Source: a virus. Taken from it: DNA of 52,545 nt. Position numbers and translations under genes: made by a program. The notes under the pieces are model-generated. The model was not told the DNA's origin, did not search any database, and saw only the letters and a program-made list of their open reading frames with translations. Below, piece after piece: positions 2,835 to 26,826 of the stretch (position 1 is the first letter of the stretch; the number at the start of each line of letters is the position of its first letter). The stretch spans positions 1 to 52,545 of IMG/VR virus record IMGVR_UViG_3300031507_000007. One strand, 5' to 3'.

Positions 2835-4606
2835 GCGCGAACAAGGCCGAGATCGAGATCACCGCGAGCACGGCGCGTCTGCCGGCGGCGCTGCGCACGG
2901 CGATGAAGATGATGCAGGGGTTCGTGGCTTCCACGACGGGGCTGCTCTCGAAGTCGTCGAAGAAGAAAGACATCGACGAGCTGGGCATCGCAAAGGGGGC
3001 GGCAATCGGGGGGATCGCGTCATCGTTCGCGGTCCGCGGCATCGACAAGATGCTCGACCAGGTCGGAGATGTCCTGAAGTTCAACGAGGCCCTTACCAGG
3101 TTCGGCATCGCGACTCGCATTGGCGGGCACGAGTTGGCCAACCTGGGGCAATCCGCGCGAGAGGCCAGCACGGCCACCGGAATCAACGCGCTCGAGGTGC
3201 TGCGCGGCGAGCGCGCGTACGTCGACCTCGCCGGCGCGAGCAAGGCGTCTGCGCAGAGCATGCGCCTGATCGCCGCCGCCTCGCAGGCCACCGGCGCCGA
3301 CGTCTCCGACATGGCAACCGTGATGTATTCGCTCGAGAACGCGCTCCACGTCTCCGGCCCGGAGATGGAATACGTGATGGGCGGGATCGTCAACCAGTCC
3401 AAGGACGGCACGGTCCACTTCCAGCAGATGGCGCAGGAGATCATCGCGCTCGCTCCGATCTATGCGCGCTTCGGGCGCACCGGCCGCGAGGGCGCGAACG
3501 AACTCGGCGCCCAGCTACAGATCGTCCGGTCCGGCTTCAAGGACAGCGCCGAGGCCGCCGTGGGCCTGAAGAACATGTGGCGAAACCTGCAGCTGCACAG
3601 CGACAAGTTCGAGAAAGCCGGCGTCAAGATCTTTGACGTCGACAAGGATGGCCACAAGAAGCTGCGCAACGTCGCCGTGATCCTCAAGGACATCAGCAAG
3701 AGCAAGCTCGACTTCGACCCGCACGCGCTGATGAAGGCGTTCGGCCGCGGAGAGTCCGAGCGCGCGTTCCGCCTGCTCGAGGAGCAGGTCGACAAGTACC
3801 GCGAGCTCGAGGAGCTGGGCATGCGCAACGGGGTCATCCAGCAGGACCTCGCAACCTACACCGAGTCCGCGAGCGGTCGCATGGCGGTCGCGTTCGAGAA
3901 GATGAAGGTCGCGTTCGCCGAGGCGCTGACCCCGGAGCGACTCGAGCAGATCGTCCAGGGCATCGAGAGCCTGACCGAGGCGATGGGGCCGCTGATGGAC
4001 ATCACCGGCAAGATCGCGGACGGGTTCGGCATGATCTATAACGCCGGCAAGAAAGCCCGGAAGCTGATCAGCGGCGGCAGCGAGTACCAGACGAGCGTGG
4101 AGGAGCGTGCGATCATGGGGCTGCCCGACCGCAGATTCATGCATGGCCTGCCGATCACTCCAGATGAACAGCGCCGGGCAGATCAGACCAAGTCTCGGAT
4201 CGATGCCTACAACCGAACGATCGGCGGGATCCTCGGAAGCGAGAAGAATGACCGGCCGACCGATGAGTCGATCCGCAAAGCGATCGTGGCGGCCCGCACG
4301 GATATGACGGGCGGGCCAGACGCAGCCCACACCCCGGAGGAGATCTCGGCGGGCAAGGCCGGCCGAGCATACCTGGCCGAGAGATCCGACTCGATCCCAG
4401 AGTCCAAGTACAAGCGGATCGAGGCCAAGATCCTAGCAGAGCAGGACTCCGCCCAGCTTCAATCGAGGCTGGGTCCGCTGATCGACAAGATGGGCAAGAC
4501 CATCTCCGACGCCATCGACCGCGCTCGCGCTCCTGTGGTCCATGTGGATGGTAACCCGATCGCAAGAGCGGCCAACAACGCGTGGCACAAGCGGCGTAAA
4601 CCGTAG
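2831..4606 (+). CDS. Tail tape measure protein
   Basis: 591 aa, helical, Ala/Leu/Glu-rich. Canonical position after the chaperone pair. Confidence 0.8.
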   Translation: MSANKAEIEITASTARLPAALRTAMKMMQGFVASTTGLLSKSSKKKDIDELGIAKGAAIGGIASSFAVRGIDKMLDQVGDVLKFNEALTRFGIATRIGGHELANLGQSAREASTATGINALEVLRGERAYVDLAGASKASAQSMRLIAAASQATGADVSDMATVMYSLENALHVSGPEMEYVMGGIVNQSKDGTVHFQQMAQEIIALAPIYARFGRTGREGANELGAQLQIVRSGFKDSAEAAVGLKNMWRNLQLHSDKFEKAGVKIFDVDKDGHKKLRNVAVILKDISKSKLDFDPHALMKAFGRGESERAFRLLEEQVDKYRELEELGMRNGVIQQDLATYTESASGRMAVAFEKMKVAFAEALTPERLEQIVQGIESLTEAMGPLMDITGKIADGFGMIYNAGKKARKLISGGSEYQTSVEERAIMGLPDRRFMHGLPITPDEQRRADQTKSRIDAYNRTIGGILGSEKNDRPTDESIRKAIVAARTDMTGGPDAAHTPEEISAGKAGRAYLAERSDSIPESKYKRIEAKILAEQDSAQLQSRLGPLIDKMGKTISDAIDRARAPVVHVDGNPIARAANNAWHKRRKP

Positions 4607-4608
4607 CC

Positions 4609-5589
4609 ATGGCCACCGAGCTCTATCTCGCCAGCTGGGGATCGATTCAGCTGTTCTGCACCGAACTCGAGATCGACATCTCGCGCACCAAGGTGGTGCA
4701 TGACCTGACCTCCGGCGACGTTCACCCGGTCCAAGACCGCGGGCTTCATGCTCGCCGCGCGAAGGGCAAGATCGTATTCGACGACTTCGGCCCCAACTTC
4801 CCGGCTCCGGTCGATGCGGCCCGGGCCATGCGGGATGCGGTCGCCAGCGGGGCCTCGGCGATGTTCACCCATCCCCTGGTCGGCAGCTACTCTGCCGGGG
4901 TCGGAGACTTTCAGCTCCGCATCGATGAGAGCAGCAACCTGTCCGCGGATGTCGAGTTCATCCCCGACGATGACGCCCCGCCGATCGCCCCGGCCGGGGC
5001 CGCATCGTCGGCCGCTTCCGGCGAGCAGGCGGTGGGCGTAGCTGCCGACGACTTCGACACCGAGACCCACAAGGTCATGACCGATGCGGAGATCCGGGCG
5101 GTCCTTGAGGCCGACGACGGAAAGGGCGGAACGATCTCGGTCGCCGACGACGCGCGCCAGTCCTCCGCCTCGTGGAAGCCGGGCGACGACGGCACGCCGA
5201 CGCCGCTGCGCGAAGTCCTGATCGACGTCACGCGGATCTCCGCCAAAATCGCCTTCGCGATCGAGGCCGGCGGGTTCGAGAATGACCTCGCGCTCTGGGC
5301 TGCATTCCGATCGGCGATCATGCTCGGCCAGTCGATCCGCGCCGCGGCAAGTTCGGCAACTTCGGAGACCCCTTCGACGTTCGTCATGCGAGTCACCGAG
5401 CCCACCGCGCTGCTGCCGATCTGCGCGCGGGTCTACGGAGGCGACGACGCGACCGACAAGGCTCGTCAGGTCGCGCAGCTCAACGACATCAGCACGCCGG
5501 GATGGCTGGCCCCGGGAGACTACACCTTCCCCGCCAAGTCGGCGGCGCAGCGCGGCCCGCTCTCCAAGGTCAAAGGGTTCTTCTTCTGA
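4609..5589 (+). CDS. Baseplate/tail protein, Mu gp43 (DNA circulation N-terminal domain)-like, with a LysM-like C-terminus
   Basis: N-terminus LYLASWGSIQLF...VVHDL..GDVHPVQDRG resembles the DNA_circ_N pattern as I remember it. Position directly after the tape measure. Confidence 0.55.
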   Translation: MATELYLASWGSIQLFCTELEIDISRTKVVHDLTSGDVHPVQDRGLHARRAKGKIVFDDFGPNFPAPVDAARAMRDAVASGASAMFTHPLVGSYSAGVGDFQLRIDESSNLSADVEFIPDDDAPPIAPAGAASSAASGEQAVGVAADDFDTETHKVMTDAEIRAVLEADDGKGGTISVADDARQSSASWKPGDDGTPTPLREVLIDVTRISAKIAFAIEAGGFENDLALWAAFRSAIMLGQSIRAAASSATSETPSTFVMRVTEPTALLPICARVYGGDDATDKARQVAQLNDISTPGWLAPGDYTFPAKSAAQRGPLSKVKGFFF

Positions 5590-6731
5590 TGCCGGCGTCA
5601 TCTCACGTCGTGACCGTGGTCGTGAACGGCCAGCAGATCGGCGGCTGGTCCGAGTACCACATCGAGTCGAGCATCATCACGCCGGCCGACTCGTTCCAGA
5701 TGCACCGACCGTTCTCGGCGGACGCATGGCTCGCGCTCCGCCGCGACTCGGATATCCGGGTCGCCATCGACGGCACGACGATCCTGCGCGGCTTCATCGA
5801 CAAGCGCGTGCGCAAAGCGCGCGAGGGCGTCATCGAGATCTCCGGCCGGGACCGCGCCGGCCGCATGGTCGACGAGAGCGCCCCGCAGATCGACTACAGC
5901 GGAATGCGGACGATCGATGCCGTCAAGCGGCTCGCGTCGCCCTGGTTCGACGTGGTGACGCTCAGCGACGCGAAGAACCGCATCCTACGCCGCGGCAAGG
6001 GCCGTCGGGTGGCGTCCGGCAGCGAGCCGGTGGTGACGATCGGGATCCGGACGCCGCGCCACGGCACCGTGCACCCGGGGATGTCGCGATGGCAGGTCAT
6101 CCACGAGATCGCGTCGCGCGAGAACCTGATGGCGTGGTCCACTGCGGACGGCGAGGAGCTGTTCATCGGCCTGCCCAACGATCGCCAAGCCCCTCAATAC
6201 CTGTTCGCTCACGCCGCGCCGGGCTCGTCGCTGCGCGGCACTATGACCGACCTGGTAATCACCGAGGACGACGGCGATCGATTCAGCCTGATCATGGTGG
6301 CCGGCTCGGGCGGCCAGAGCGATACCAACTACGGCGAGAACGTCTCGGACAACCGGGGCCGGGTGTTCGACAGCCCGTTCAACAAGATCGACGGCACCGG
6401 CCGCGACTTCATCCACCCGAAGCGGATGTTCATGCCGGAACGCGACTTCGCCAGCTTCGGCGACGCCCAGCGGGTCGCCGAGAACGAGCAGGCGCGCCGC
6501 GACTTCCACCGCCACAGCGTCCGCGTCGATGCTCCGCTGCACGGCCAGTTCCTCGGAACCGCGTGCACGCTGTTCGCGCCGAACTGCGTAGGCCGAGTGA
6601 TCGACGAGGAGCAGACGCCGAAGCTCGACGACAACTACCTGATCGTCTCGTGCTCGTACAACTCCACCCATGACCAGGGCGAGAGCACCTCGATGCACAT
6701 GGTGCCCGTCGGAACGAGGATCATCCTGTGA
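5589..6731 (+). CDS. Baseplate hub protein (Mu gp44 / P2 gpD-like)
   Basis: ATG 5589 shares 1 nt with the upstream TGA. About 380 aa. Synteny with Mu gp44. Confidence 0.65.
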   Translation: MPASSHVVTVVVNGQQIGGWSEYHIESSIITPADSFQMHRPFSADAWLALRRDSDIRVAIDGTTILRGFIDKRVRKAREGVIEISGRDRAGRMVDESAPQIDYSGMRTIDAVKRLASPWFDVVTLSDAKNRILRRGKGRRVASGSEPVVTIGIRTPRHGTVHPGMSRWQVIHEIASRENLMAWSTADGEELFIGLPNDRQAPQYLFAHAAPGSSLRGTMTDLVITEDDGDRFSLIMVAGSGGQSDTNYGENVSDNRGRVFDSPFNKIDGTGRDFIHPKRMFMPERDFASFGDAQRVAENEQARRDFHRHSVRVDAPLHGQFLGTACTLFAPNCVGRVIDEEQTPKLDDNYLIVSCSYNSTHDQGESTSMHMVPVGTRIIL

Positions 6732-7288
6732 GCGCAACCGACGACGACGTCCGAGCGCGGCGCGACGCGACCTCGCCGGAGACCCGGCGGTGGGCCGGGC
6801 TCGCCCGCCGGATGGTAGCGAAGCTGACCCGCGGCCCGACCTGGCAGGTGCTGGGCCACCTGCTCCTCGAGAACAACCGCGAGACCGTGCAGGCAGAGAA
6901 CTTCTCGGGGATCGGGTTCTTCGCGCGCCCCAAGGCGAGCCACCGGTCCGAGGCCGTGGTGATCTACCCCGGCGGCGCCGCCAACCCGATCATCGTGGCG
7001 ACCCGCGACGAGGACGCGCGCAGGGCGATCGCCGATCTCGGCGAGGACGAGACCGCGGCCTTCAACAGCGCCACGATCGTACTGATCAAGGGCAACACGG
7101 TGGAGATCCGGCTTGCCGGCGGGACCGCGCTCAAGCTGCCGACCCTGGCCGACTACAATGCGCTACGCGCCGCCTTCAACGCCCACGTTCACCTGGAGAC
7201 CGGGGCGACCACGAACGCGCCCACGGCGGTCCCCAGCGTGATCCCAGTACCTGCGCCGACCGGGACCGTCGTTCTCAAAGCCCAGTGA
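6728..7288 (+). CDS. Baseplate spike / assembly protein V-like (Mu gp45-like)
   Basis: GTG start in a GTGA overlap. 186 aa. Synteny after the hub gene. Confidence 0.6.
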   Translation: MSATDDDVRARRDATSPETRRWAGLARRMVAKLTRGPTWQVLGHLLLENNRETVQAENFSGIGFFARPKASHRSEAVVIYPGGAANPIIVATRDEDARRAIADLGEDETAAFNSATIVLIKGNTVEIRLAGGTALKLPTLADYNALRAAFNAHVHLETGATTNAPTAVPSVIPVPAPTGTVVLKAQ

Positions 7289-7319
7289 CCGCCGCCGGGC
7301 GATCTGGTAACCCGGCCGC

Positions 7320-8963
7320 GTGACCAACTTTCTACGCGATCTGGTGGCGCTTCCGTTTCCGGTCACCGACCTCAACCCGATCCCGGTGGGCGAGGACGCG
7401 ACCAAGTATATGGACGCGTCGAAGTACAACGCGATCTGCCAGGCGGCCGTGGACCTGCGCGGCTGGGCACTGACCGGCTTGACGCCGGGTACCTACACCA
7501 ACGTCACCCTGATCGTCGACGCGGACGGCCGCATCACCAGCGCGGCTGCCGGATCCGCAGGTGTTCCGACTTCGCGCACGCTCACCGCGACCGCACCGAT
7601 CCGGATCGACGGTGGCGGCAGCTCTGACCTGTCGGCGAACCGCACGCTGTCGCTCGCCAACACCGCGGTCACGCCGGGCAGCTACACGTTCACGTCGCTA
7701 ACCGTCGACGCCCAGGGTCGAATCACCGCGGCCAGCAACGGCTCGTTCGCGGCGATCGCGACCAGCGGTAGCGCCTCCGATCTGACGCTCGGCACTGTGC
7801 CGGCTGCGCGCATGCCCGCACTGACCGGTGACGTCACGACCAGCGCGGGAGCCGTGGCAACGACGATCGGCGCGAACAAGGTCACGGTCGGGATGATGGC
7901 GCAGGCCGCGACGCTGACCCTGCTCGGTAACAACACCGGCGGGACCGCGAATATCTCGGCGCTCACCGTCTCGCAGATCACGTCCATGCTCGGCATCTCC
8001 GCCGGGAGCTTCGGCCTCTTCGGGTCTGGCCTGGATGGGGCCGTGGTCATGGACGGGGTCGCATCGATTCCGGGCACCACGCTCGCCGCCAACGTCTACA
8101 AAGCGACCCGCGAACTTCACCTCACGAACCTGACCATCAACGCGACGGTATCGTTCAAGCCCGATGGCTACTCGGTGTTCGTCAAGGGCACGCTCACCAA
8201 CAACGGAACATACGACTGCAGGGGTACGGCTGCAGCTGGTCAGGCGGCCGGCAACGGGCTGTGGACTGGTTCTCGATCGCTGCCCCTTCCCCCCGGGGGC
8301 AGCGGAGGGGCCGGCGGGGTGAGCCCCGGCAACGACGGAACCGCGGGGGTCACCCAAACCAACGGCATTAGGATCGCCTCGACCGCAACCGTGTTGGGAG
8401 GCACGACCGGAAACGTGGGCAACGCCGGAGGCCAGTGCGCGGGCGGAAGCGGAGGCGGCGGAGGACTGGGCCTCGGGTCATTCGGTGGAGACGGGGGTAG
8501 GTTCAGCTCGCTTGCGTCCGGTCTCAACGGCGACTTCGCCAACTTCTTGTCTGCCACGCAGGGTCGCCCCTACCTGACCACCACCATGTTCGTGGCGGGG
8601 TGCGGCGGCGGCGGCGGCGGCTGCGGCGGCGGCACGACGGGCGGACAGGGCGGCGGCGGTGGCTCTGCCGCCGGATGGTCCGTGCTGTACGCCTTCGCCT
8701 TCGCCGGATCGGGAACGTACACCGCCAAGGGCGGCGCCGGGGCGAACGGAACCGCAGGGGTGACCAACGGTGGTGGTGGTGGTGGTGGTGCGGGCGGGGC
8801 CGGCGGCATCTTTGTGTTGGTCACCGCATCTCAATCGCCGCCCACCGTTGACGTGTCCGGCGGGGCGGCCGGAACCGGGGCGGCCGGGGCGGGAACGGCA
8901 AGCGGAAACCCTGGCGCAACGGGCGGCGCAGGCGGCGTCGGTATCCTGCTTACGTTCAACTGA
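7320..8963 (+). CDS. Tail fibre-like protein with fibre repeats and a Gly-rich C-terminal half
   Basis: Two repeats: TPGTYTNVTLIVDADGRITSAAAG and TPGSYTFTSLTVDAQGRITAASNG. C-terminal half has poly-Gly runs such as CGGGGGGCGGG and NGGGGGGGAGGAGG. Confidence 0.6.
   Translation: MTNFLRDLVALPFPVTDLNPIPVGEDATKYMDASKYNAICQAAVDLRGWALTGLTPGTYTNVTLIVDADGRITSAAAGSAGVPTSRTLTATAPIRIDGGGSSDLSANRTLSLANTAVTPGSYTFTSLTVDAQGRITAASNGSFAAIATSGSASDLTLGTVPAARMPALTGDVTTSAGAVATTIGANKVTVGMMAQAATLTLLGNNTGGTANISALTVSQITSMLGISAGSFGLFGSGLDGAVVMDGVASIPGTTLAANVYKATRELHLTNLTINATVSFKPDGYSVFVKGTLTNNGTYDCRGTAAAGQAAGNGLWTGSRSLPLPPGGSGGAGGVSPGNDGTAGVTQTNGIRIASTATVLGGTTGNVGNAGGQCAGGSGGGGGLGLGSFGGDGGRFSSLASGLNGDFANFLSATQGRPYLTTTMFVAGCGGGGGGCGGGTTGGQGGGGGSAAGWSVLYAFAFAGSGTYTAKGGAGANGTAGVTNGGGGGGGAGGAGGIFVLVTASQSPPTVDVSGGAAGTGAAGAGTASGNPGATGGAGGVGILLTFN
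8604..8633 (+). repeat. (GGC)6-TGC-(GGC)3 trinucleotide run inside the fibre gene
   Basis: Read directly. Encodes GGGGGGCGGG. Confidence 0.85.
8769..8789 (+). repeat. (GGT)7 microsatellite inside the fibre gene
   Basis: Read directly. Encodes seven Gly. GGT is not the Gly codon used in most of the surrounding genes (GGC predominates). Confidence 0.85.
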
Positions 8964-8970
8964 GGACGCC

Positions 8971-9468
8971 ATGAGCTTCTTCGCCTCCCCATTCTCCTCT
9001 CCGTTCGGATCCGGGTTCATCTTCGCGCCGATCACGCGCGCCGAGGCGCTGCAGCAGAACCCCGCCGGCGAGATCCCCGGTGCCTTCGACATGATGCTCG
9101 ACCCGGTCTCGCTCGACTTCGTGCGCACCGACGGCGGCGAATGGGCCGAGACCGCGGACTCGCGCGCGACCGTGATGATCATGCTCGAGCTCGAGCTCGG
9201 CGCCAGCCCGTTCGACCCGGGCGACGGAACCCGCCTGCGCGCGCTGCGCCGCGTGGGCGACCCGATCACCCCGGAGGTCATCCAGTCCGACGTACTGCGC
9301 GCCGGCGGTGTGCTGGTCGCGGACGGCGTAATCTCGGACCTCTCGGTCGACGTCCGCGACACCGCCGGAGATGCCCTGGTCGATGAGTCCGGTCGCGGCG
9401 CAGTCCAGCTTCACTGGCGCGACCTCGCTTCGGGATCCCCCGTCGACGCGTCGTTCTCACCGAGGTAG
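8971..9468 (+). CDS. Baseplate wedge protein, Mu gp46-like
   Basis: ATG 8971 within ORF 8770..9468. 165 aa. Synteny directly upstream of the J-like gene. Confidence 0.55.
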   Translation: MSFFASPFSSPFGSGFIFAPITRAEALQQNPAGEIPGAFDMMLDPVSLDFVRTDGGEWAETADSRATVMIMLELELGASPFDPGDGTRLRALRRVGDPITPEVIQSDVLRAGGVLVADGVISDLSVDVRDTAGDALVDESGRGAVQLHWRDLASGSPVDASFSPR

Positions 9469-9470
9469 CC

Positions 9471-11003
9471 ATGCCATTCTCCGTTCCATCCCTGGCCGAC
9501 ACGCGAGACTTCCTCGTCGCGCTTGGCAAGTCGCTGTTCCCGTGGGCCAACTTCGGTAGCCGGCGCACCTTCCATGGCCGCCGAGCGACTTACCTGGCCG
9601 CCGCGGTGACGCAACTCCACGCCCATGTCGACTCGGCGGAGCGCGACGTGCACCCGTTGACCGCCGGCGATGGAAAGCCCATTGACGACTGGGGGGATAC
9701 CGTCGGTGTTCCGCGCAAGGCAGCCACGCCAGCCCGCAAGGCGTCGGCCGGGCGCGTGCGCGGAGCCGCCGGCGCGACCGTCACGATCGGCGAGCAGCTC
9801 AAGCACGACACCTCGGGCCTGATCTACGAGCTGGCTCAGAACGTCACCATCCCCGGGACGGCCGGCGTCGATCCGGACAGCTTCGTCGACGCCAGCATCG
9901 TCGCGGTCGACACCGGAGCCAAAACCCGGCAGGACGCCGGGCAGACGCTGGCCTTCGTGAACACGCTGCCCGGCATCGAGCGCAACGTCATCCTACAGCT
10001 ACCGCTCGACGAGGACGGCTTCGACGCGGAGCCATTCGGCAGCTACCGCGCGCGCGTGCTCGCCACGTTCTCGCAGACCCCGAGCGGCGGCAACCAGGCC
10101 GACTTCGTGAAATGGGCGCTGGCGAGCCTTAACACGGTGGCGGCGGCGTTCGCCTACCCGAACCGGGCCGGGCGCGGAACGATCGACATCGCGGCGTTCT
10201 ACGCGGGCAGCGGGACGGCGCGCACCCTGACGGTCGACGACCGCGAGGCCGTGGCGACATACATCCGCACCCAGACCACAGCGCCGTTCCAGATCACGGG
10301 CGCCGGCGGCGGCCTGCGGATCTTGGTCACAGTAGCTGACCCGAGGCCCGTGGAGATCCTGTTGATCCCGAACGGGCAGGCAGCCTTCGCGTTCGATTGG
10401 GACGACAGCACGCCGCCGACGGTGCTCGGCTGGGTCTCGGCTACGCGCGAGCTGCATTTTTCCGGCGGCGCGCTGCCTCCGTCCCTGCGCGCCGGGCACC
10501 GGCTGTCGCTGCGCGGCGTCGCGAGCGCGCAGGACGGCACCGAGTTCAAGATCGAATCGATCTCCGCCGTCGACAAGGTCATCCTCGAGAAAACCCCGGC
10601 GGTCGACCCGGTCGCGACCGACGTGATCTACTCGGGCGGCCCACTGGTCACGCCGGTCCGCGCCGCCATCGTGGCTCACCTGAACGGGGAGATCGTCTAC
10701 GCCGGGCGCGGCCTGACGCCGCTGCCGGCCAGCTCGGTCGACTCGACCGTCGGGCTCGACATCCTGGCCGATGGCATCGGCAGCGCCAACCCGGGCGGGA
10801 TCTACAACGTGGCCGGCGGGGTCAGCTGGTCCGGCGCGATCGTGCGCGCGCAGCTGTTCGGGATCGCCAAGTACAAGGCCGGCGTCCGCGACGTCGACGT
10901 GGCTACGCCGGCCGCGAACTACGAGGCAGTCGACGACGCGTTCCCCGACGACGCCCAGATCCACTACGTCACCCCGGGCGCCGTGCTCGTGCGGAGGGGC
11001 TGA
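9471..11003 (+). CDS. Baseplate J-like protein (Mu gp47-like)
   Basis: 510 aa, with size and position typical of the baseplate J family. Confidence 0.75.
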   Translation: MPFSVPSLADTRDFLVALGKSLFPWANFGSRRTFHGRRATYLAAAVTQLHAHVDSAERDVHPLTAGDGKPIDDWGDTVGVPRKAATPARKASAGRVRGAAGATVTIGEQLKHDTSGLIYELAQNVTIPGTAGVDPDSFVDASIVAVDTGAKTRQDAGQTLAFVNTLPGIERNVILQLPLDEDGFDAEPFGSYRARVLATFSQTPSGGNQADFVKWALASLNTVAAAFAYPNRAGRGTIDIAAFYAGSGTARTLTVDDREAVATYIRTQTTAPFQITGAGGGLRILVTVADPRPVEILLIPNGQAAFAFDWDDSTPPTVLGWVSATRELHFSGGALPPSLRAGHRLSLRGVASAQDGTEFKIESISAVDKVILEKTPAVDPVATDVIYSGGPLVTPVRAAIVAHLNGEIVYAGRGLTPLPASSVDSTVGLDILADGIGSANPGGIYNVAGGVSWSGAIVRAQLFGIAKYKAGVRDVDVATPAANYEAVDDAFPDDAQIHYVTPGAVLVRRG

Positions 11004-20729: not shown

Positions 20730-20909
20730 ATGTCCTACGTGCTGCCGCCGAACAACGCGATCCGGATCATCTGCTCGCAGGATCAGCCCGAAGAGGTCCG
20801 CCGGCAGCTGTTCGAGATGGACCTCGAGCTCCAACGCCGGGACATGAACAACACGCCAGAGGGCGGCGGCCCGGTCCGCGGCTGGGGCCAGGGGCGCGGC
20901 CGGCGCTAG
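20730..20909 (+). CDS. Small hypothetical protein (59 aa)
   Basis: Below the ORF-track cutoff, so read manually: MSYVLPPNNAIRIICSQDQPEEVRRQLFEMDLELQRRDMNNTPEGGGPVRGWGQGRGRR. By my count 54 of 59 third codon positions are G/C. Confidence 0.4.
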   Translation: MSYVLPPNNAIRIICSQDQPEEVRRQLFEMDLELQRRDMNNTPEGGGPVRGWGQGRGRR

Positions 20910-21319
20910 ATCCCGAGCGACTTCGCTAGCCGCACGATATCCTGGCCGACCTGGTCCTTGTCGCCCCACGGGGGCATGACGCCGAGGGTAGTCAGGTCGA
21001 GCACGGGGATCGCCTCTCGGATCCTGCGCTGCGCGTGGTTCTTCTCGAGCTCCATATGGGGAGAGACGCGCCCGCCACACATCACGACCAGGTCCGATCG
21101 GCCGATCAGCTCGATCTGGTCTCGCATCGCCCGCGGCCGGTGGAACACGTCGTCCACGGCGGCGATGTAGACGAACCATGGGCAGGTGATGCACCACCGG
21201 GTAGTCATCACGAGGAACTTGAACCACTGCATCGCGTTGGCGACGTTGTCGCCTCTCAGCGATCCGCCATCCTCGTCTGCCTCGCCCATGGGGTGCGTCA
21301 GGTAGGCAACTATCGCCAT
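20906..21319 (-). CDS. Nucleoside 2-deoxyribosyltransferase-like (DUF1937/DUF4406-type) protein, paralogue 1
   Basis: YLTHPMG...NVANAMQWFKFL...CPWF...RSDLVVMCGGRVSPHMELE. The same block order occurs in 31795..32349. Confidence 0.55.
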   Translation of the reverse strand: MAIVAYLTHPMGEADEDGGSLRGDNVANAMQWFKFLVMTTRWCITCPWFVYIAAVDDVFHRPRAMRDQIELIGRSDLVVMCGGRVSPHMELEKNHAQRRIREAIPVLDLTTLGVMPPWGDKDQVGQDIVRLAKSLGI

Positions 21320-21803: not shown

Positions 21804-21829
21804 CCGACCCATGATAGGGTGCCCTCACA

Positions 21830-22630
21830 ATGAGCGCATCCAAGGGTCAAGTCGTCGAGGTTCAGATCACGTCGGGTAGATGGTCGCTGGCCTTCGTGGT
21901 CAAGATCATCTCCGGCGACACCGTCAACCTGGTGGCCATTGCCGACGGCGTTGACCCATGGCCGACCGCTGACACCTTCAACGGCGTGGTCTCGGGCACC
22001 CTGGTCAGCGTCACCAAGGGTACCGAGGTTGGTCAGTGGCGAGAGGTCGCGCTCCCGAGCTATGTGACCGATGCGATCTCGGCCGCCGTCGCCGCAGCGC
22101 TCACCGACTACGCGACCGACTCGGACATCTCGAGCGCGGTGTCCGCAGCGCTTGCTACGGTCGCATCAAACCTCGCCGGCGCCGTCGACTCAATCGATAC
22201 CGACATCGATGCGCTCGAGGCGTCGGTTGCCTCGCTGTCCGCTGCGGTCGCCGCGATCCCGGCCGACGATGACAGTGGGCTTGCAGTTGTTTCGACGGCG
22301 GGCTCGTCTCACAGCTCACTCGGGCTGAACGCCGCGCGGCAACCCAGCTCGACGAGACCCACCCGGGTAACGGCGACTGGCTCGATGAGCCTGACGTCGA
22401 CTCTTCTCGGATCGCAGACCGTCAGCGTCGACCTGCTGAGCGACGCCAGCAACCCGCCGACGACCAGGCGGGGACGGCAGCCGGCCGGGCTGTCCGGTGT
22501 GGCCGCGAGCGCGACGATGCCGTGGACGCTGACCTACGACGTGCCGGCCGGTCATTACTACAAGCTGGTGACCGCCAACACCGCAGGCGCCAGCGTGTCG
22601 CTCGACGACATCAACGAGACCGCTGGCTAG
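21830..22630 (+). CDS. Fibre-like protein (N-terminal small beta domain, Ala/Ser/Asp coiled segment, C-terminal beta domain)
   Basis: ALPSYVTDAISAAVAAALTDYATDSDISSAVSAALATVASNLAGAVDSIDTDIDALEASVASL resembles tail-fibre shaft segments. Confidence 0.45.
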   Translation: MSASKGQVVEVQITSGRWSLAFVVKIISGDTVNLVAIADGVDPWPTADTFNGVVSGTLVSVTKGTEVGQWREVALPSYVTDAISAAVAAALTDYATDSDISSAVSAALATVASNLAGAVDSIDTDIDALEASVASLSAAVAAIPADDDSGLAVVSTAGSSHSSLGLNAARQPSSTRPTRVTATGSMSLTSTLLGSQTVSVDLLSDASNPPTTRRGRQPAGLSGVAASATMPWTLTYDVPAGHYYKLVTANTAGASVSLDDINETAG

Positions 22631-22658
22631 CCCAGGTCGGGTGGTGTAACCCATCCGC

Positions 22659-23252
22659 ATGGATGACAGCTGCGGTGGCCAGGCGTACTCCCTAACCGGC
22701 TCGACCGGGACCATGGCCGCTGCGCTCGCGGCCAACTCGATCGTGTTCGCGATGCAGGCGACCGCGGACGTCGCCGCGAACGTGAACGCGCCGCGCCGCG
22801 CTCCGATCGAGATCGAAGGCATCCGCATGACCTTCACCGCGATCGTGGCCTCGGCGGCGCCGGTCGCCGCGGGGCGGGCGCTGCGGCTGTTCAAGAGCTC
22901 GGACAACGCGCAGGCGATGCCGGCCGGCGGGACCGCGCTGACCGCGCTGGCGAAGCGCACGCTCGACGCCGGCGGAAACTCCGGCCTGGTCGGGGCGCAA
23001 ATCTCGACGACGGCCGGGCTTACGGTCGTCGGGTTCACGCGCGGCACCGTGCCGATGGCGACGATGGATCTCGCCGGCGAGGGCGCGGCCGGCAACCGGA
23101 TCGTCTACGAGCTCTACGAGAGCATCAACGGCGCCGCGCTGTGGCTCGACCCCGGGGAGATCCTCGTGGTCTCGAACCCTGCGATCTTCGATGCGCTGCT
23201 GACCTGGCAGCTCACCGTCGACGTGGACTACCGGCGCCGCGACTCGCTATAG
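22659..23252 (+). CDS. Hypothetical beta-rich protein
   Basis: 197-aa ORF with high GC3, directly downstream of the fibre-like gene. Confidence 0.45.
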   Translation: MDDSCGGQAYSLTGSTGTMAAALAANSIVFAMQATADVAANVNAPRRAPIEIEGIRMTFTAIVASAAPVAAGRALRLFKSSDNAQAMPAGGTALTALAKRTLDAGGNSGLVGAQISTTAGLTVVGFTRGTVPMATMDLAGEGAAGNRIVYELYESINGAALWLDPGEILVVSNPAIFDALLTWQLTVDVDYRRRDSL

Positions 23253-23858
23253 CCCCAGCCAGGGGTCTGCGGTGCGCGCGATCGAGATCAGGACGTCGCG
23301 GAACCGATCGGGGGTCGCGATGCACTCCCGCTTCCCCAGCCGCTCGAGCGGCACCCGCAGGTCGCCGCGCGCCTCAGCTGCGCGCCGCTCGTCCTTCGAG
23401 TGATATCCGGCGTCCAGCCGGACGCCGGAGGGTGACGGCCCCCAGATCAACTCTGGAAGATCGCAGCCGACCGCGTAGAGCCACGTCGCCTTGCGAGCGC
23501 GGTGCCCGTAGTGCCCTTGCTCGACCTGGCACGTCCATCCGAGCTCGTCGCCCGGCACCCATCCGCCGACGAACGGAGGCCGCGCGATCCCGTGCGCCTT
23601 CCACGCGTGCGACGCCTGCGGGTGCTCGAGCACGCCGCCCCACCTGCGCACCGCGGCGACCGCGGCGGCGAAGCATCCATCGTCGTCGCCGAGCAGGCGA
23701 CGGACCCGGGCCGACGGACCGCCCGACCAGTAGCGACCCCAGCGCTCGCACGGCGGGTGGGCGACAACCGGATGCGGACCCGCGAAGGCGCGTGCATCAC
23801 GCTCCTCATCCCACGGATCCACGTCGGGCTGGTTGAAGTAGCAGCCGCCCGTGGCCAC
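23247..23858 (-). CDS. PPC-motif protein with C5-pyrimidine-methyltransferase-like motif spacing (tentative)
   Basis: GTG 23858 in the frame of ORF 23247..24761. HPPCERW, VLEHP, GHRARKATW and RECIATPDRF are spaced roughly like C5-MTase motifs IV, VI, VIII and IX. I see no clear FxGxG loop. Confidence 0.45.
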   Translation of the reverse strand: MATGGCYFNQPDVDPWDEERDARAFAGPHPVVAHPPCERWGRYWSGGPSARVRRLLGDDDGCFAAAVAAVRRWGGVLEHPQASHAWKAHGIARPPFVGGWVPGDELGWTCQVEQGHYGHRARKATWLYAVGCDLPELIWGPSPSGVRLDAGYHSKDERRAAEARGDLRVPLERLGKRECIATPDRFRDVLISIARTADPWLGL

Positions 23859-23869
23859 GTAGAGCGCTG

Positions 23870-24391
23870 CTATAGCGCGTCCCACGGGTCCCGCTCGCCG
23901 CCGAGGATCGCCGCCAGCGCCGCGCGCACCGCGGCCTGGACGCCGGGCTCTCGGCTCTCGCGCGGTCCGGCGACGTTGAGGATGCGGACGTTGCATTCGC
24001 GCAGAAACTGGGATACCCGGTCTATGGCGTGCCTTCGGTATTCGATGTCGGCCACGATGTTGTGCCGGCACGGCTTGCCCAGCGTGCGAGCCATCTTCGC
24101 GGTCAGGTAGCTGCCGCTGTCCATCTCGAGCGGCCCGATCGACAGGATCAGCGTCGCGTCGCTGGCCTCGATGTTCGCGCGGGTCCGCACCGGGTACGCC
24201 GGCGAGGCGCTCTGCACCATGCCGACCCGGTAGCGCTCGGGGATCACGCCGTCCTCGGCGCGCCAGCCCGCCGGCGCAAAGCCGCCCGTGGCGATCCCGA
24301 GGTCCCACGCGGCCTCTAGCGCGCCGCGATCGGCGCCGGTTTGGCCGCCGGAGATGATGCGGGCGACGGTCACCTGCGCGACGATTCCCAT
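23870..24391 (-). CDS. SLOG-superfamily protein, YpsA / 'putative molybdenum carrier' type
   Basis: RIISGGQTGADRGALEAAWDLGIATGGFAPAGWRAEDGVIPERY...RTRANIEASDATLIL. An alternative GTG at 24373 would give a GTGA overlap with the thyX stop. Confidence 0.75.
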   Translation of the reverse strand: MGIVAQVTVARIISGGQTGADRGALEAAWDLGIATGGFAPAGWRAEDGVIPERYRVGMVQSASPAYPVRTRANIEASDATLILSIGPLEMDSGSYLTAKMARTLGKPCRHNIVADIEYRRHAIDRVSQFLRECNVRILNVAGPRESREPGVQAAVRAALAAILGGERDPWDAL

Positions 24392-25041
24392 GCGTCGATG
24401 ATCGTTGGGAACACCGGCCGCAGCAGCGCCAGCATCGCCTCGGCATAGACGCGGATCTCGTACTGCGCGTGCGGGTCAAGCCGCAGCGCGAGCATGTGCA
24501 GGGTGTTGTGGAGGTCGCACTGCCAGTACCACTCGGTGTACGTGCCGCACGGCAGGACCGAGCGCGCCAGCTCGGGCGCGAGTCCCTTGGTGAGCAGTGC
24601 CTCGTAGGCATCGAACGACGCGTTGCAGCTCTGGACCATGAGCCTGTTGCACCCCAACGGGTCGTCAACGATCTGACTGGATGAGCCCTGCTTGTTCGTC
24701 TCGGCCTTGCGTTGCATGCGCTCGCCGACTGGCACGTAGAACTCACGCGCGGCCTGCACATACCGGTAGCTGACCTCGTTGATGCTCGCAGTCCGATGTC
24801 GCACGAGCTGGCGAGCCACGAAGATCGGCATCTTGTGATAGAAGCGAATCTGGCAGAACTCGAGCGGCGTCGTGTGCCTGTGACGCACGAGGTAGCTGGT
24901 GAGCTTGGCGTCCTCGTCCTCGGTGCGCTCCTTGCGGTTGCGGAACGAGGTGCGCGCGGTCTGCGCCGGCGTCCGGTCGTGGCCCATGACGTCGACGAGG
25001 GCGACGAAGCCGTAATCGAGAACTGGGATTTCGTTGGTCAC
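24370..25041 (-). CDS. thyX: FAD-dependent thymidylate synthase ThyX
   Basis: ThyX signature RHRTASINEVSYRY, plus HTTPLEF and the YTEWYWQCDLHNTLH blocks. Confidence 0.9.
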   Translation of the reverse strand: MTNEIPVLDYGFVALVDVMGHDRTPAQTARTSFRNRKERTEDEDAKLTSYLVRHRHTTPLEFCQIRFYHKMPIFVARQLVRHRTASINEVSYRYVQAAREFYVPVGERMQRKAETNKQGSSSQIVDDPLGCNRLMVQSCNASFDAYEALLTKGLAPELARSVLPCGTYTEWYWQCDLHNTLHMLALRLDPHAQYEIRVYAEAMLALLRPVFPTIIDAWESSRR

Positions 25042-25250
25042 TTGAGATTGCCTTCCTGGCGCGCGATCTCTCGGTCGAGATACCAGCGCGCTTTCTTGAG
25101 ATCCTCGAGTCCCGCCTTTGCGGCGTGGCGCAGGATGTATTTGACGACGTTGCCGAGACAGAAACCGAGGTCGAACTCCTCGATGATTCGCATCACGGTG
25201 TCGCCGCGGTAGTGAGATGGGTTGATTGGGTCCTTGGGTGTCTTGCTCAT
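25038..25250 (-). CDS. DUF3310-like phage protein
   Basis: ATG 25250. INPSHYRGD...GNVVKYILRHAAKAGLEDLKKARWYL matches the DUF3310 pattern. Confidence 0.65.
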   Translation of the reverse strand: MSKTPKDPINPSHYRGDTVMRIIEEFDLGFCLGNVVKYILRHAAKAGLEDLKKARWYLDREIARQEGNLK

Positions 25251-25525
25251 GGTCGATACTCCAATGCGCTTCGGATCATGTCCTCGGCGATTCGCGTGAT
25301 CTGGGTGTCGTGCCCGTCGGAGATGCGCTCGCACAGCGCAGACAGGATTTCCCCGAGAGTGGCGCGGCCGAAGTTGATGACGATGCGGTCCGGCCCGGGT
25401 GCCTCGGGCAGCGTTGGCCTTGGCGACCGCGTGCGGTTGTAGGGCATTCGGTAGCGGCGGCGCGGCTTGTACATCGCCGCGAACCTCGCCGCGGTCTCCG
25501 CGCTGGTCGATCGCCGGATGCTCAT
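25247..25525 (-). CDS. Hypothetical protein (92 aa)
   Basis: ATG 25525 in an ATGA overlap with the helicase stop. It is the C-terminal part of the long shadow ORF 25247..26929. Confidence 0.4.
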   Translation of the reverse strand: MSIRRSTSAETAARFAAMYKPRRRYRMPYNRTRSPRPTLPEAPGPDRIVINFGRATLGEILSALCERISDGHDTQITRIAEDMIRSALEYRP

Positions 25526-26826
25526 TCGATCCTCGCAACGACGCGCCAGCGTCCGCTTGGGGTTTTCTCGATCGCGCCGGAGCGCGACAGCTCTTGAAGC
25601 GCCGACTGCGCGGCGTTGCCGCGGCCGACTCCGCGGAGCCCGCGGATCTCCGACCACTCCATGCCGAGCATCCCGTGTCGGGTCAGCGCCGTCATGATCT
25701 CTGCCCGCCGCGATGCGTCGGCGTCGCCGGCGCGCGCGAGGTTCATGTCCGCCGTGACCTCCGCGATCGACGGCGCGGGGCCGGCGCGGTGCTTGTCCTT
25801 CTTCGCCTTCTCGTGCTCGGCCTTCACCGCAAGCGGGTGGACCGGGACGTAGTCGAGCTCGTCCCACACGCCGCCGGGCTTCTTGAACCGCGCGCCCACC
25901 TTGCCCTCGCGCCCGACGTGCCGGCTCTTGGCGATGTTCCAGCGCGCCTCGAGCTCGTCCTTGTCGTCGGCCTTGAACACCTCGAGGTTGATCTCGATCG
26001 CCGCGGCGTTCTCGACCTCGCCGCTCTCGCCGGCCGACCCGGAGGTATCGGTCGCCGACTCGTGATCGACCTTGCCGGTGAGCGCCTGGTTCTTCGAGCG
26101 CGACGGCTGAGCGAGCATCAACACGAAGCACTCCTCTTCGACGGCCAGCGCCCGGATGTTCTCGGCCGCCGCGATCGTGGCCATGCGGATATCGCGCGCC
26201 AGCGACGCGAGCTTTCCGAGGTAGTCGACCACGATCAGCGGCTTGACCCGGTACGTCTTCCAGACCACCGCGATCGCCCGGCGCAGCGCCGCATACTGCT
26301 TGTCCGGGTCCATCAGGCGCGGCACGAACTTCCACATGTCGTGGACGGCCTGCAGGGTGTGGGCGATCCGGGCCTCGGTCCAGTGCTCCTTGATCGCCAT
26401 CGTGTGCACGCCGTGCATGTTGGCGACGATGCGCTCCGTGATCTGCGTGGGGTCGAGCTCGAGCGCGCACCACAGCACGGGGATGCCGTTGCCGGTGAAC
26501 GACAGCCCGACCTGGATCGCGAAGCTCGTCTTGCCGGCCCCGGTCGGCCCGGTGACTATCACGACGTCGCCGGTGTACGCCCGGCAGCGCTCGCCGAGCT
26601 GGGGCCACGCGGCCGGCCAGCAGAACCGCGGCAGCCCGCGCCGCCGGATGATCTCGGTCAGGCAGTCGAGCGGCCCCGGGAACTTGTCGCTCTCGGAGAG
26701 CTTGCTGTTCTGCTCGGCCAGCGCGGCGGAGAACGCCTCGGTCAGCTTCGCGTTCGCGCGCATCCCGGGGAACGGGATCACGTTGTCCGGGACGGAGCCG
26801 GCTTCGTCGTCGAGGATCGGCATCAC
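25522..26826 (-). CDS. Replicative helicase, DnaB/RecA-fold family, with a C-terminal winged-helix-like tail
   Basis: Walker A GPTGAGKTSF, Walker B-like LIVVDYLG. 434 aa, adjacent to the primase gene. Confidence 0.75.
   Translation of the reverse strand: MMPILDDEAGSVPDNVIPFPGMRANAKLTEAFSAALAEQNSKLSESDKFPGPLDCLTEIIRRRGLPRFCWPAAWPQLGERCRAYTGDVVIVTGPTGAGKTSFAIQVGLSFTGNGIPVLWCALELDPTQITERIVANMHGVHTMAIKEHWTEARIAHTLQAVHDMWKFVPRLMDPDKQYAALRRAIAVVWKTYRVKPLIVVDYLGKLASLARDIRMATIAAAENIRALAVEEECFVLMLAQPSRSKNQALTGKVDHESATDTSGSAGESGEVENAAAIEINLEVFKADDKDELEARWNIAKSRHVGREGKVGARFKKPGGVWDELDYVPVHPLAVKAEHEKAKKDKHRAGPAPSIAEVTADMNLARAGDADASRRAEIMTALTRHGMLGMEWSEIRGLRGVGRGNAAQSALQELSRSGAIEKTPSGRWRVVARIE

Follow-up and report, generated by a model that had tools for sequence, protein, structure and literature searches.

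Distal end of the replication operon

We analysed a 52,545-nucleotide stretch of viral DNA (positions 1 to 52,545 of the IMG/VR record IMGVR_UViG_3300031507_000007; hereafter the window), a phage-like contig of high G+C content (~68%), with regard to the genes at the distal end of its replication operon. A primase-like gene and a gene for a DnaB-like helicase, both on the minus strand, are followed there by orf92 and by genes for a DUF3310 protein, the thymidylate synthase ThyX, a stand-alone protein of the SLOG superfamily and a protein carrying a PPC motif (hereafter the PPC protein). No near-identical match to the region was returned from 50,697 phage records, leaving no close relative among deposited phages. 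We favour, with a probability of about 70%, the reading that a tailed-phage replication operon ends in this segment with a variable set of accessory genes, which act independently of each other, and that the PPC protein works as an orphan methyltransferase.

A preliminary description of this DNA, made from the sequence alone, had listed five leftward open reading frames (ORFs) downstream of the helicase gene, and all five lie on the minus strand where it had placed them. The G+C content at the third codon position ranges from 0.76 to 0.95 across all ORFs, and the five thus fit real coding sequence. The same description regarded the genes as joined mainly by 4-nt overlaps. This is correct for the DnaB/orf92, orf92/DUF3310 and DUF3310/ThyX junctions, whereas the ThyX and SLOG genes overlap by 22 nt (24370-24391).

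The gene for the DnaB-like replicative helicase (25522..26826, minus strand), which gives the context in the upstream part of the operon, was recognised by its match to PF03796 (DnaB_C, E = 3.9e-16). orf92 (25247..25525, minus strand) encodes a lineage-specific protein of 92 amino acids (aa) with a third-position G+C content of 0.84, and no family match was obtained for it in Pfam, PHROG, NCBIfam or PADLOC. The next two genes had been named correctly from their letters. The 70-aa DUF3310 protein (25038..25250, minus strand) matched PF11753 (E = 5.5e-14), as well as PHROGs carrying the label 'nucleotide kinase'. ThyX, the flavin-dependent thymidylate synthase (24370..25041, minus strand), matched both PF02511 (E = 5.6e-53; 180 bits against a cutoff of 24.8 bits) and phrog_85 (E = 1.3e-58), and its translation contains the signature RHRxxSxxxxSxR in the form RHRTASINEVSYRY. 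The two remaining genes, for the SLOG protein (23870..24391, minus strand) and the PPC protein (23247..23885, minus strand), are described below in turn, beginning with the latter.

The terminal PPC protein

The gene for the PPC protein exists as proposed, but its start most likely needs revision. The preliminary description read 203 aa from position 23858; judging from the alignment of homologues, a GTG start at position 23885, which gives a protein of 212 aa and a 16-nt overlap with the SLOG stop, is more likely. We favoured the upstream start because (i) homologues begin with M-IAALYV, (ii) residues A6, A7 and L8 are conserved, and (iii) the start at 23858 drops the strand IAALY. At its other end, the gene stops within the palindromic hexamer CTATAG (23247..23252), in which, as read from the sequence, the stop codons of two convergent transcription units stand back to back: the stop of the minus-strand operon abuts that of a convergent plus-strand gene for a 197-aa protein, with zero intergenic space. 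No terminator-like site was found at this convergent junction.

The PPC protein is a member of phrog_12600, a family labelled 'unknown function' (E = 2.2e-64; residues 3-207 on profile positions 2-195 of 203), and the same profile was matched by all 53 diverse family members that we compared. Sequence searches of Pfam, NCBIfam, PADLOC and the PDB yielded nothing for the protein, nor did the family profile against the PDB, and its named matches are all 'hypothetical protein'. The family is nevertheless large. More than 8,000 of its clusters at the 90% identity level have members 65-75% identical to the window protein, and the 50% level comprises at least 2,395 clusters, the range of which covers tailed phages, microviruses, the 10.9-kb Xanthomonas phage fSU1 and prophages of many phyla. 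Full-length genes of the family are left un- or only partly annotated in Pseudomonas Persinger (NC_054149.1, 14594-15196), in Ralstonia PQ43W (PP405626.1, 23269-23847) and in a Caudoviricetes record (MW202476.1, 33228-33824), where the gene is located directly downstream of that for a Dam-type methyltransferase. Fusions are rare: a C-terminal NUDIX domain (513 aa in total) and an N-terminal GNAT acetyltransferase (337 aa) occur in representatives P0136 and P0165. One NUDIX and one GNAT among ten long representatives were too sporadic to be taken as a clue to function.

Residue conservation was measured over 103 representatives of the family. The four motifs noticed earlier (HPPCERW, VLEHP, GHRARKATW and RECIATPDRF) are all present in the window protein. 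C46, D68, G70, F72, E87, H88, P89, Q123 and K132 are 97-100% conserved, and the same level is given for blocks that include some of these residues, namely GGV(L)EHP and Q123-x-x-YGH-x-x-x-K132, and for P192 in a TPxxF helix. The segment A42-H43-P44-P45-C46, which includes the Pro-Cys of motif IV, is kept in 94-98 of the 103. Motif VI reads E-H-P (103, 102 and 103 of the 103, respectively) in place of the canonical E-N-V, and its glutamate, E87, is invariant. The N-terminal 45 residues are also among the best conserved (L8, G14, Y16, W25, D30, A31 and Y34, with position 23 being acidic in ~85%), which argues for some ligand site having been retained in this part of the protein.

The preliminary description had guessed that these motifs are spaced as in C5-pyrimidine methyltransferases, and the structural comparison backs this guess. 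In a Foldseek search of the PDB with the AlphaFold model (predicted local distance difference test, pLDDT, 84.4), ranks 1-39 were all C5-cytosine DNA methyltransferases, including M.HaeIII, M.HhaI and DNMT1/3; the best match was M.HaeIII (E = 4e-3, probability 0.87, query TM-score 0.34-0.39). The named matches in BFVD were likewise nearly all cytosine methyltransferases, short viral ones, with probabilities up to 1.0 and query TM-scores up to 0.51. By eye, we assigned motif IV, the loop between motifs IV and V (D-x-G-x-F), and motifs VI, VIII and IX of the PPC protein against M.HhaI, the reference sequence of which was verified to be identical to PDB 10MH. A weak link was also found at the sequence level, as 22 of the 53 members matched phrog_757 'DNA methyltransferase' (best E = 2e-5). 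The alignment places PPC residues ~30-190 on profile positions ~65-210 of 247, and this offset indicates that the N-terminal half of the PPC protein is shortened.

Compared with canonical C5-methyltransferases (M.HhaI, M.HaeIII and DNMT1/3; PF00145), the PPC protein shares the Pro-Cys nucleophile after a beta strand, the flexible D-x-G-x-F loop, the acidic motif VI (E87), a motif-VIII-like strand with Q...K/R and a motif-IX-like TPxxF helix. The Pro-Cys nucleophile, the motif-VI Glu, the motif-VIII Gln/Lys and the motif-IX-like helix are kept, and the N-terminal cofactor half is compressed. The protein differs from the canonical enzymes in length (212 aa against 275-330 aa or more), in reading EHP and not ENV at motif VI, and in having no FxGxG, helix A, motif III, motif X or real target-recognition domain. 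The place of the last is taken by residues 140-185, a stretch of ~45 residues that is variable, gap-rich and modelled at a pLDDT of 65-75. The highest TM-scores were obtained with short viral methyltransferase-like proteins (phrog_757; 210-255 aa in BFVD), for instance A0A2P0VN45 of Tetraselmis virus 1 and Q38204 of Halobacterium phage phiH. In phrog_757, however, the N-terminus takes up ~60 profile positions against ~30 in the PPC family, and the two are separate PHROG families. We know of no biochemical characterisation of such short viral cytosine methyltransferase-like proteins.

The only member of the PPC family with a published functional guess is Gp8 of the Rhodobacter microvirus Ebor, a 6.6-kb single-stranded DNA (ssDNA) phage. 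Gp8, which is shorter than the PPC protein (163 aa) and shares 36% identity with it over residues 2-137 (E = 4e-9), was called a 'putative DNA methylase' by HHpred, the activity being predicted (PMC11980548).

A number of results weigh against the PPC protein being a DNA cytosine-C5 methyltransferase. The Foldseek TM-scores are modest, though consistently to C5-methyltransferases. Motif I (FxGxG) is absent, with G14 and Y16 alone conserved in the loop, so that the doubt about a convincing FxGxG raised in the preliminary description proved justified: G14 is the single conserved glycine there. The model contains no helix A, strands 1 and 2 being joined by a 13-residue coil, and the protein stops right after the motif-IX-like helix, without motif X (GNxV). 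As motif I, motif X and helix A are missing, binding of S-adenosylmethionine (SAM) is putative. Nor does the sequence lead to the canonical family. PF00145 was matched by neither the PPC protein nor any of the 53 members, even at E<=5; the alignment of the PPC family with the single M.HhaI sequence by hhalign was not significant, and that with a 79-sequence M.HhaI-type profile received a probability of 0.2%. An HMMER search iterated from the M.HhaI-type profile over 8,367 ORFs, which came from all fetched loci, reached convergence and had not picked up the PPC family. Vsr, which would be an indirect sign of 5-methylcytosine (5mC), was found beside PPC homologues in 0 of 164 loci, and no restriction-enzyme partner was evident among the neighbouring Pfam families listed (top 25 per scan). 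Finally, 5mC accounted for 1.58% of cytosine calls in nanopore data of Ebor DNA, and the authors could not attribute it to Gp8 (PMC11980548).

The stand-alone cpYpsA-family protein

The 173-aa SLOG protein had been ascribed to the YpsA-type or 'putative molybdenum carrier' clade, and this proved to be right. The protein is securely a member of the cpYpsA family, PF12694 (E = 3e-43; 147.5 bits against a gathering cutoff of 26.2), and matches PDB 3IMK, 'putative molybdenum carrier', by sequence (E = 1.4e-22). Its AlphaFold model (pLDDT 91.3) was superposed by Foldseek on the same entry with TM-scores of 0.85 and 0.93 and a root-mean-square deviation of 1.7 A. Thus, in comparison with the cpYpsA protein of Syntrophus aciditrophicus (3IMK), the phage protein shows a full-length match of the hidden Markov model, a near-identical fold and 36% identity. 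The motifs SGGQTGxDR, ED, RTxxN and NxAGPRE are invariant in its relatives. 3IMK is a structural-genomics entry without known ligand, and the phage protein adds to it a short, conserved C-terminal tail after the last helix (DPWDAL here; GFGWDP or GFGGR in relatives), which lies outside the residues of the window protein aligned to 3IMK.

No other SLOG structure was recovered with the model, that is, neither YpsA, nor ThsA, nor LOG. According to PMC9503650, the SLOG domain of ThsA (Thoeris), YpsA of B. subtilis and the LOG/PpnN nucleotide N-glycosidases are members of the same superfamily, which consists of Rossmannoid domains that bind nucleotides and have a Gly-rich loop following strand 1. 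No sequence or Foldseek match was obtained with these proteins, the topology of which differs by a circular permutation. This permutation probably hides them from the fold search. As there is no structural match beyond 3IMK, the ligand specificities of ThsA, YpsA and LOG are not transferable to the SLOG protein.

We detected 2,091 homologues of the SLOG protein, many of them on 51-54 kb contigs resembling relatives of this phage. Among deposited phages the gene is rare, being found in 12 records under the labels 'SLOG family protein' or 'molybdenum carrier'; the window protein is in this respect one further phage example of the cpYpsA family. Our search of the literature on cpYpsA, UniProt Q67472 and phage SLOG anti-defence experiments retrieved no functional study.

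Gene neighbourhoods and interpretation

To compare gene neighbourhoods, we assembled 247 loci: 84 with a PPC homologue (80 of them on viral contigs), 80 from bacterial genomes with a PPC homologue, and 83 with cpYpsA (80 of them on viral contigs). The three gene families do not travel together. cpYpsA was found within about 6 kb of the PPC homologue in 0 of the 84 loci, and ThyX near it in three, in none of which the two are adjacent. In the reverse direction, no PPC homologue was found near cpYpsA (0 of 83), and ThyX was near it in the closest relative only. The 80 bacterial loci, most of them resembling prophages, with Alpha- and Betaproteobacteria, Myxococcales and Gemmatimonadota among the source taxa, contained cpYpsA, ThyX and Vsr in 0 cases each.

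The closest relative, a 52,487-bp contig (L168) of which the DnaB gene has ~97% nucleotide identity to that of the window, is instructive in this regard. Its genes run DnaB-DUF3310-ThyX-cpYpsA, and the slot of the PPC gene is taken by an unrelated ORF of 56 aa. Three segments of the window have no counterpart in L168, namely 23253-23873 (the PPC gene), 25262-25518 (orf92) and 21807-22634, with flanks that are 82-97% identical, and these segments look like cassette-type indels. As its slot is filled otherwise in L168, the PPC gene represents a cassette that occupies an exchangeable position at the end of the operon. The segment 21807-22634 carries a plus-strand ORF for a 266-aa Ala/Ser-rich protein. 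In more distant members of the lineage, cpYpsA is kept near DnaB without ThyX. The cpYpsA gene is a stable part of the replication module in this ~52-kb phage lineage while its neighbours change, and the combination of ThyX, SLOG and PPC genes is idiosyncratic to this genome, each gene coming from an already catalogued family. In five distant relatives (L169, L172, L174, L176 and L178; about 5001-7350), cpYpsA is located just upstream of DnaB (0-550 bp), not downstream.

PPC homologues are immediately flanked by a mixed set of phage replication and early genes, such as those for DnaB, integrases, dUTPase, GcrA, GapR and helicases. Orphan DNA methyltransferases (Dam, N6_N4, D12, MT-A70 and one canonical C5-methyltransferase) also adjoin them. 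The last case, in locus L253, indicates that PPC and canonical C5-methyltransferase genes can coexist. The ORF in question (about 5510-6130; FSGIGG...GFPCQ...ENS) lies directly downstream of the PPC homologue and spans motifs I-VIII only; it may be truncated or frameshifted. The PPC family occupies the same niche as the orphan phage DNA methyltransferases (Dam, CcrM-like, N4/N6 and C5), being found as single genes in early or replication modules with a patchy distribution, cassette-like gain and loss, and at times clustering with other methyltransferases. The orphan phage enzymes, however, have recognisable SAM motifs and proven activity, and the PPC family has neither.

Microviruses of 4.8-6.6 kb (Ebor with 6.6 kb, Tortoise microvirus 37 and a 4.8-kb Microviridae record) carry PPC homologues as well. 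Partner enzymes for the PPC protein are not available in genomes as tiny as these and that of the 10.9-kb Xanthomonas phage. The genes in question are at 4001-4345 in Ebor, 2861-3379 in MK765587.1, 2990-3487 in MH572337.1 and, for the Xanthomonas phage, 9035-9613 in PQ067315.1, and in all these phages the PPC gene is one of very few accessory genes.

We therefore prefer to regard the genes at the operon end as functionally separate. dTMP synthesis is the established function of the ThyX family, and ThyX would supply dTMP for phage DNA synthesis. By analogy with its superfamily, we infer that the cpYpsA-family SLOG protein has a nucleotide, or a derivative of one, as its ligand or substrate. 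The terminal gene would be a separately acquired cassette for a stripped-down C5-cytosine-methyltransferase-like enzyme. This enzyme would work alone, as an orphan DNA cytosine-C5 methyltransferase, and the modification of phage DNA by it would blunt host restriction, as with other orphan phage methyltransferases. What the analysis shows is the family memberships, the fold, the conserved catalytic residues, the genomic niche and the lack of linkage between the genes; SAM use, DNA as the substrate and the anti-restriction role of the PPC protein, which probably acts as an orphan DNA cytosine-C5 methyltransferase of predicted activity, are inferred. For true SAM-dependent formation of 5mC in DNA, taken by itself, we would give even odds.

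The same proteins admit other readings. The best surviving of these concerns the SLOG protein and is compatible with the operon end being a set of independent genes: the protein may be an anti-defence factor that binds or cleaves immune signals derived from NAD or ADP-ribose, such as the cyclic ADP-ribose isomers of Thoeris. The preliminary description had raised this idea, which is possible and is not new, as viral YpsA-like SLOG domains as a class were already proposed in 2022 to counter host signals of the ADP-ribose type (PMC9503650). The conserved polar motifs SGGQTGxDR, ED, RTxxN and GPRE suit a ligand or active site, and the immediate neighbours of viral cpYpsA genes include one ADP-ribosylglycohydrolase and one NADAR protein. 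In the window, however, no gene of the Macro, NADAR or Nudix kind was observed next to the SLOG gene, and in this lineage cpYpsA resides in the replication module, at most about 1.2 kb from DnaB in 7 of the 83 loci. The literature search found no experiment on any cpYpsA protein, and 3IMK alone was matched by structure, ThsA and YpsA not being matched, given the circular permutation. We consider an anti-defence role possible, albeit the less probable option.

For the PPC protein, it is conceivable that the family derives from C5-methyltransferases and has ceased to be a SAM-dependent DNA methyltransferase. Its donor or substrate may be a different one (ssDNA, a free nucleotide or RNA), or it may carry out SAM-independent C5/C6 chemistry or act as a non-catalytic base-flipping DNA binder. 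The missing or reduced motif I, helix A, motif III, motif X and target-recognition domain, together with EHP in place of ENV, would be explained in this manner. The family is present in ssDNA phages, and the canonical C5-methyltransferase right alongside the PPC homologue at one locus suggests that the two are not redundant. Nevertheless, the high conservation of the N-terminal 45 residues is in keeping with a cofactor site having been preserved, the invariance of Cys and Glu speaks for catalysis, and the genomic contexts are the same as those of orphan phage DNA methyltransferases. On balance, such altered chemistry appears rather unlikely to us.

A related and similarly doubtful proposition is that phrog_12600 constitutes a new class of very compact (~200 aa), autonomous C5-pyrimidine-modifying enzymes without a target-recognition domain. 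Members of the family might be the smallest DNA cytosine-C5 methyltransferases that function unaided, with a cofactor site of unusual design, or might have kept Cys-C6 covalent catalysis with another donor or substrate. If an active methyltransferase of ~200 aa without a recognition domain were confirmed, it would provide a very small C5-methyltransferase scaffold, account for an accessory gene for which even microviruses bear the cost, and improve the annotation of thousands of phage and prophage genes. phrog_12600 is large, highly conserved, minimal in its methyltransferase-like architecture, not covered by a Pfam or NCBIfam model and often uncalled in deposited phage genomes, which will be no surprise to specialists.

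It is improbable that the SLOG protein is instead an enzyme of nucleotide metabolism beside thymidylate synthesis, that is, an N-glycosidase of the LOG/PpnN type with a (deoxy)nucleoside monophosphate as its substrate. SLOG enzymes of the LOG clade cleave the N-glycosidic bonds of nucleotides, and in three lineages the direct neighbour of cpYpsA is a thymidylate synthase gene, of one or the other non-homologous type: ThyX here and in L168/L171, ThyA in L194, and ThyA in L199/L208. One dCMP deaminase and one adenylosuccinate synthetase were also found among the neighbours of cpYpsA. We set aside the adjacency to thymidylate synthase as a functional link, as about 3 of ~75 distinct lineages is not significant against 0 of 84 in the control set. 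In addition, most cpYpsA loci are without a nucleotide-metabolism neighbour, and phage nucleotide-metabolism genes group with replication genes in any case. In the window the two genes meet in the overlap at 24370-24391, and the other adjacent pairs are located at 4351-5513 in L168, 5001-6523 in L194, 3904-5539 in L199 and 5001-6636 in L208.

The weakest proposal, the one with which the preliminary description had joined ThyX, SLOG and PPC proteins into one functional unit, namely a single undescribed pathway of pyrimidine or DNA-base modification, is most improbable: the three genes are adjacent, translationally overlapping and on one strand in the window, and nucleotide-related chemistry is common to them all, but they co-occur in 0 of the 247 loci (84 + 83 + 80), L168 holds ThyX and SLOG genes without the PPC gene, other relatives in the lineage hold SLOG without ThyX, and PPC homologues are solitary in microviruses. 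The segment thus reveals no new pathway, and the remaining interest lies in phrog_12600, the one gene family here that is worth a bench test.

Two further observations concern the surroundings of these genes. The PPC protein, the SLOG protein and orf92 gave no match to the known anti-phage defence models of PADLOC. A minus-strand ORF for a 137-aa protein at 20906-21319 matched DUF7768 weakly (E = 1.2e-3, under the gathering score), and DUF7768 proteins are also encoded a few kb from the PPC homologues at two other loci (L004 and L085).

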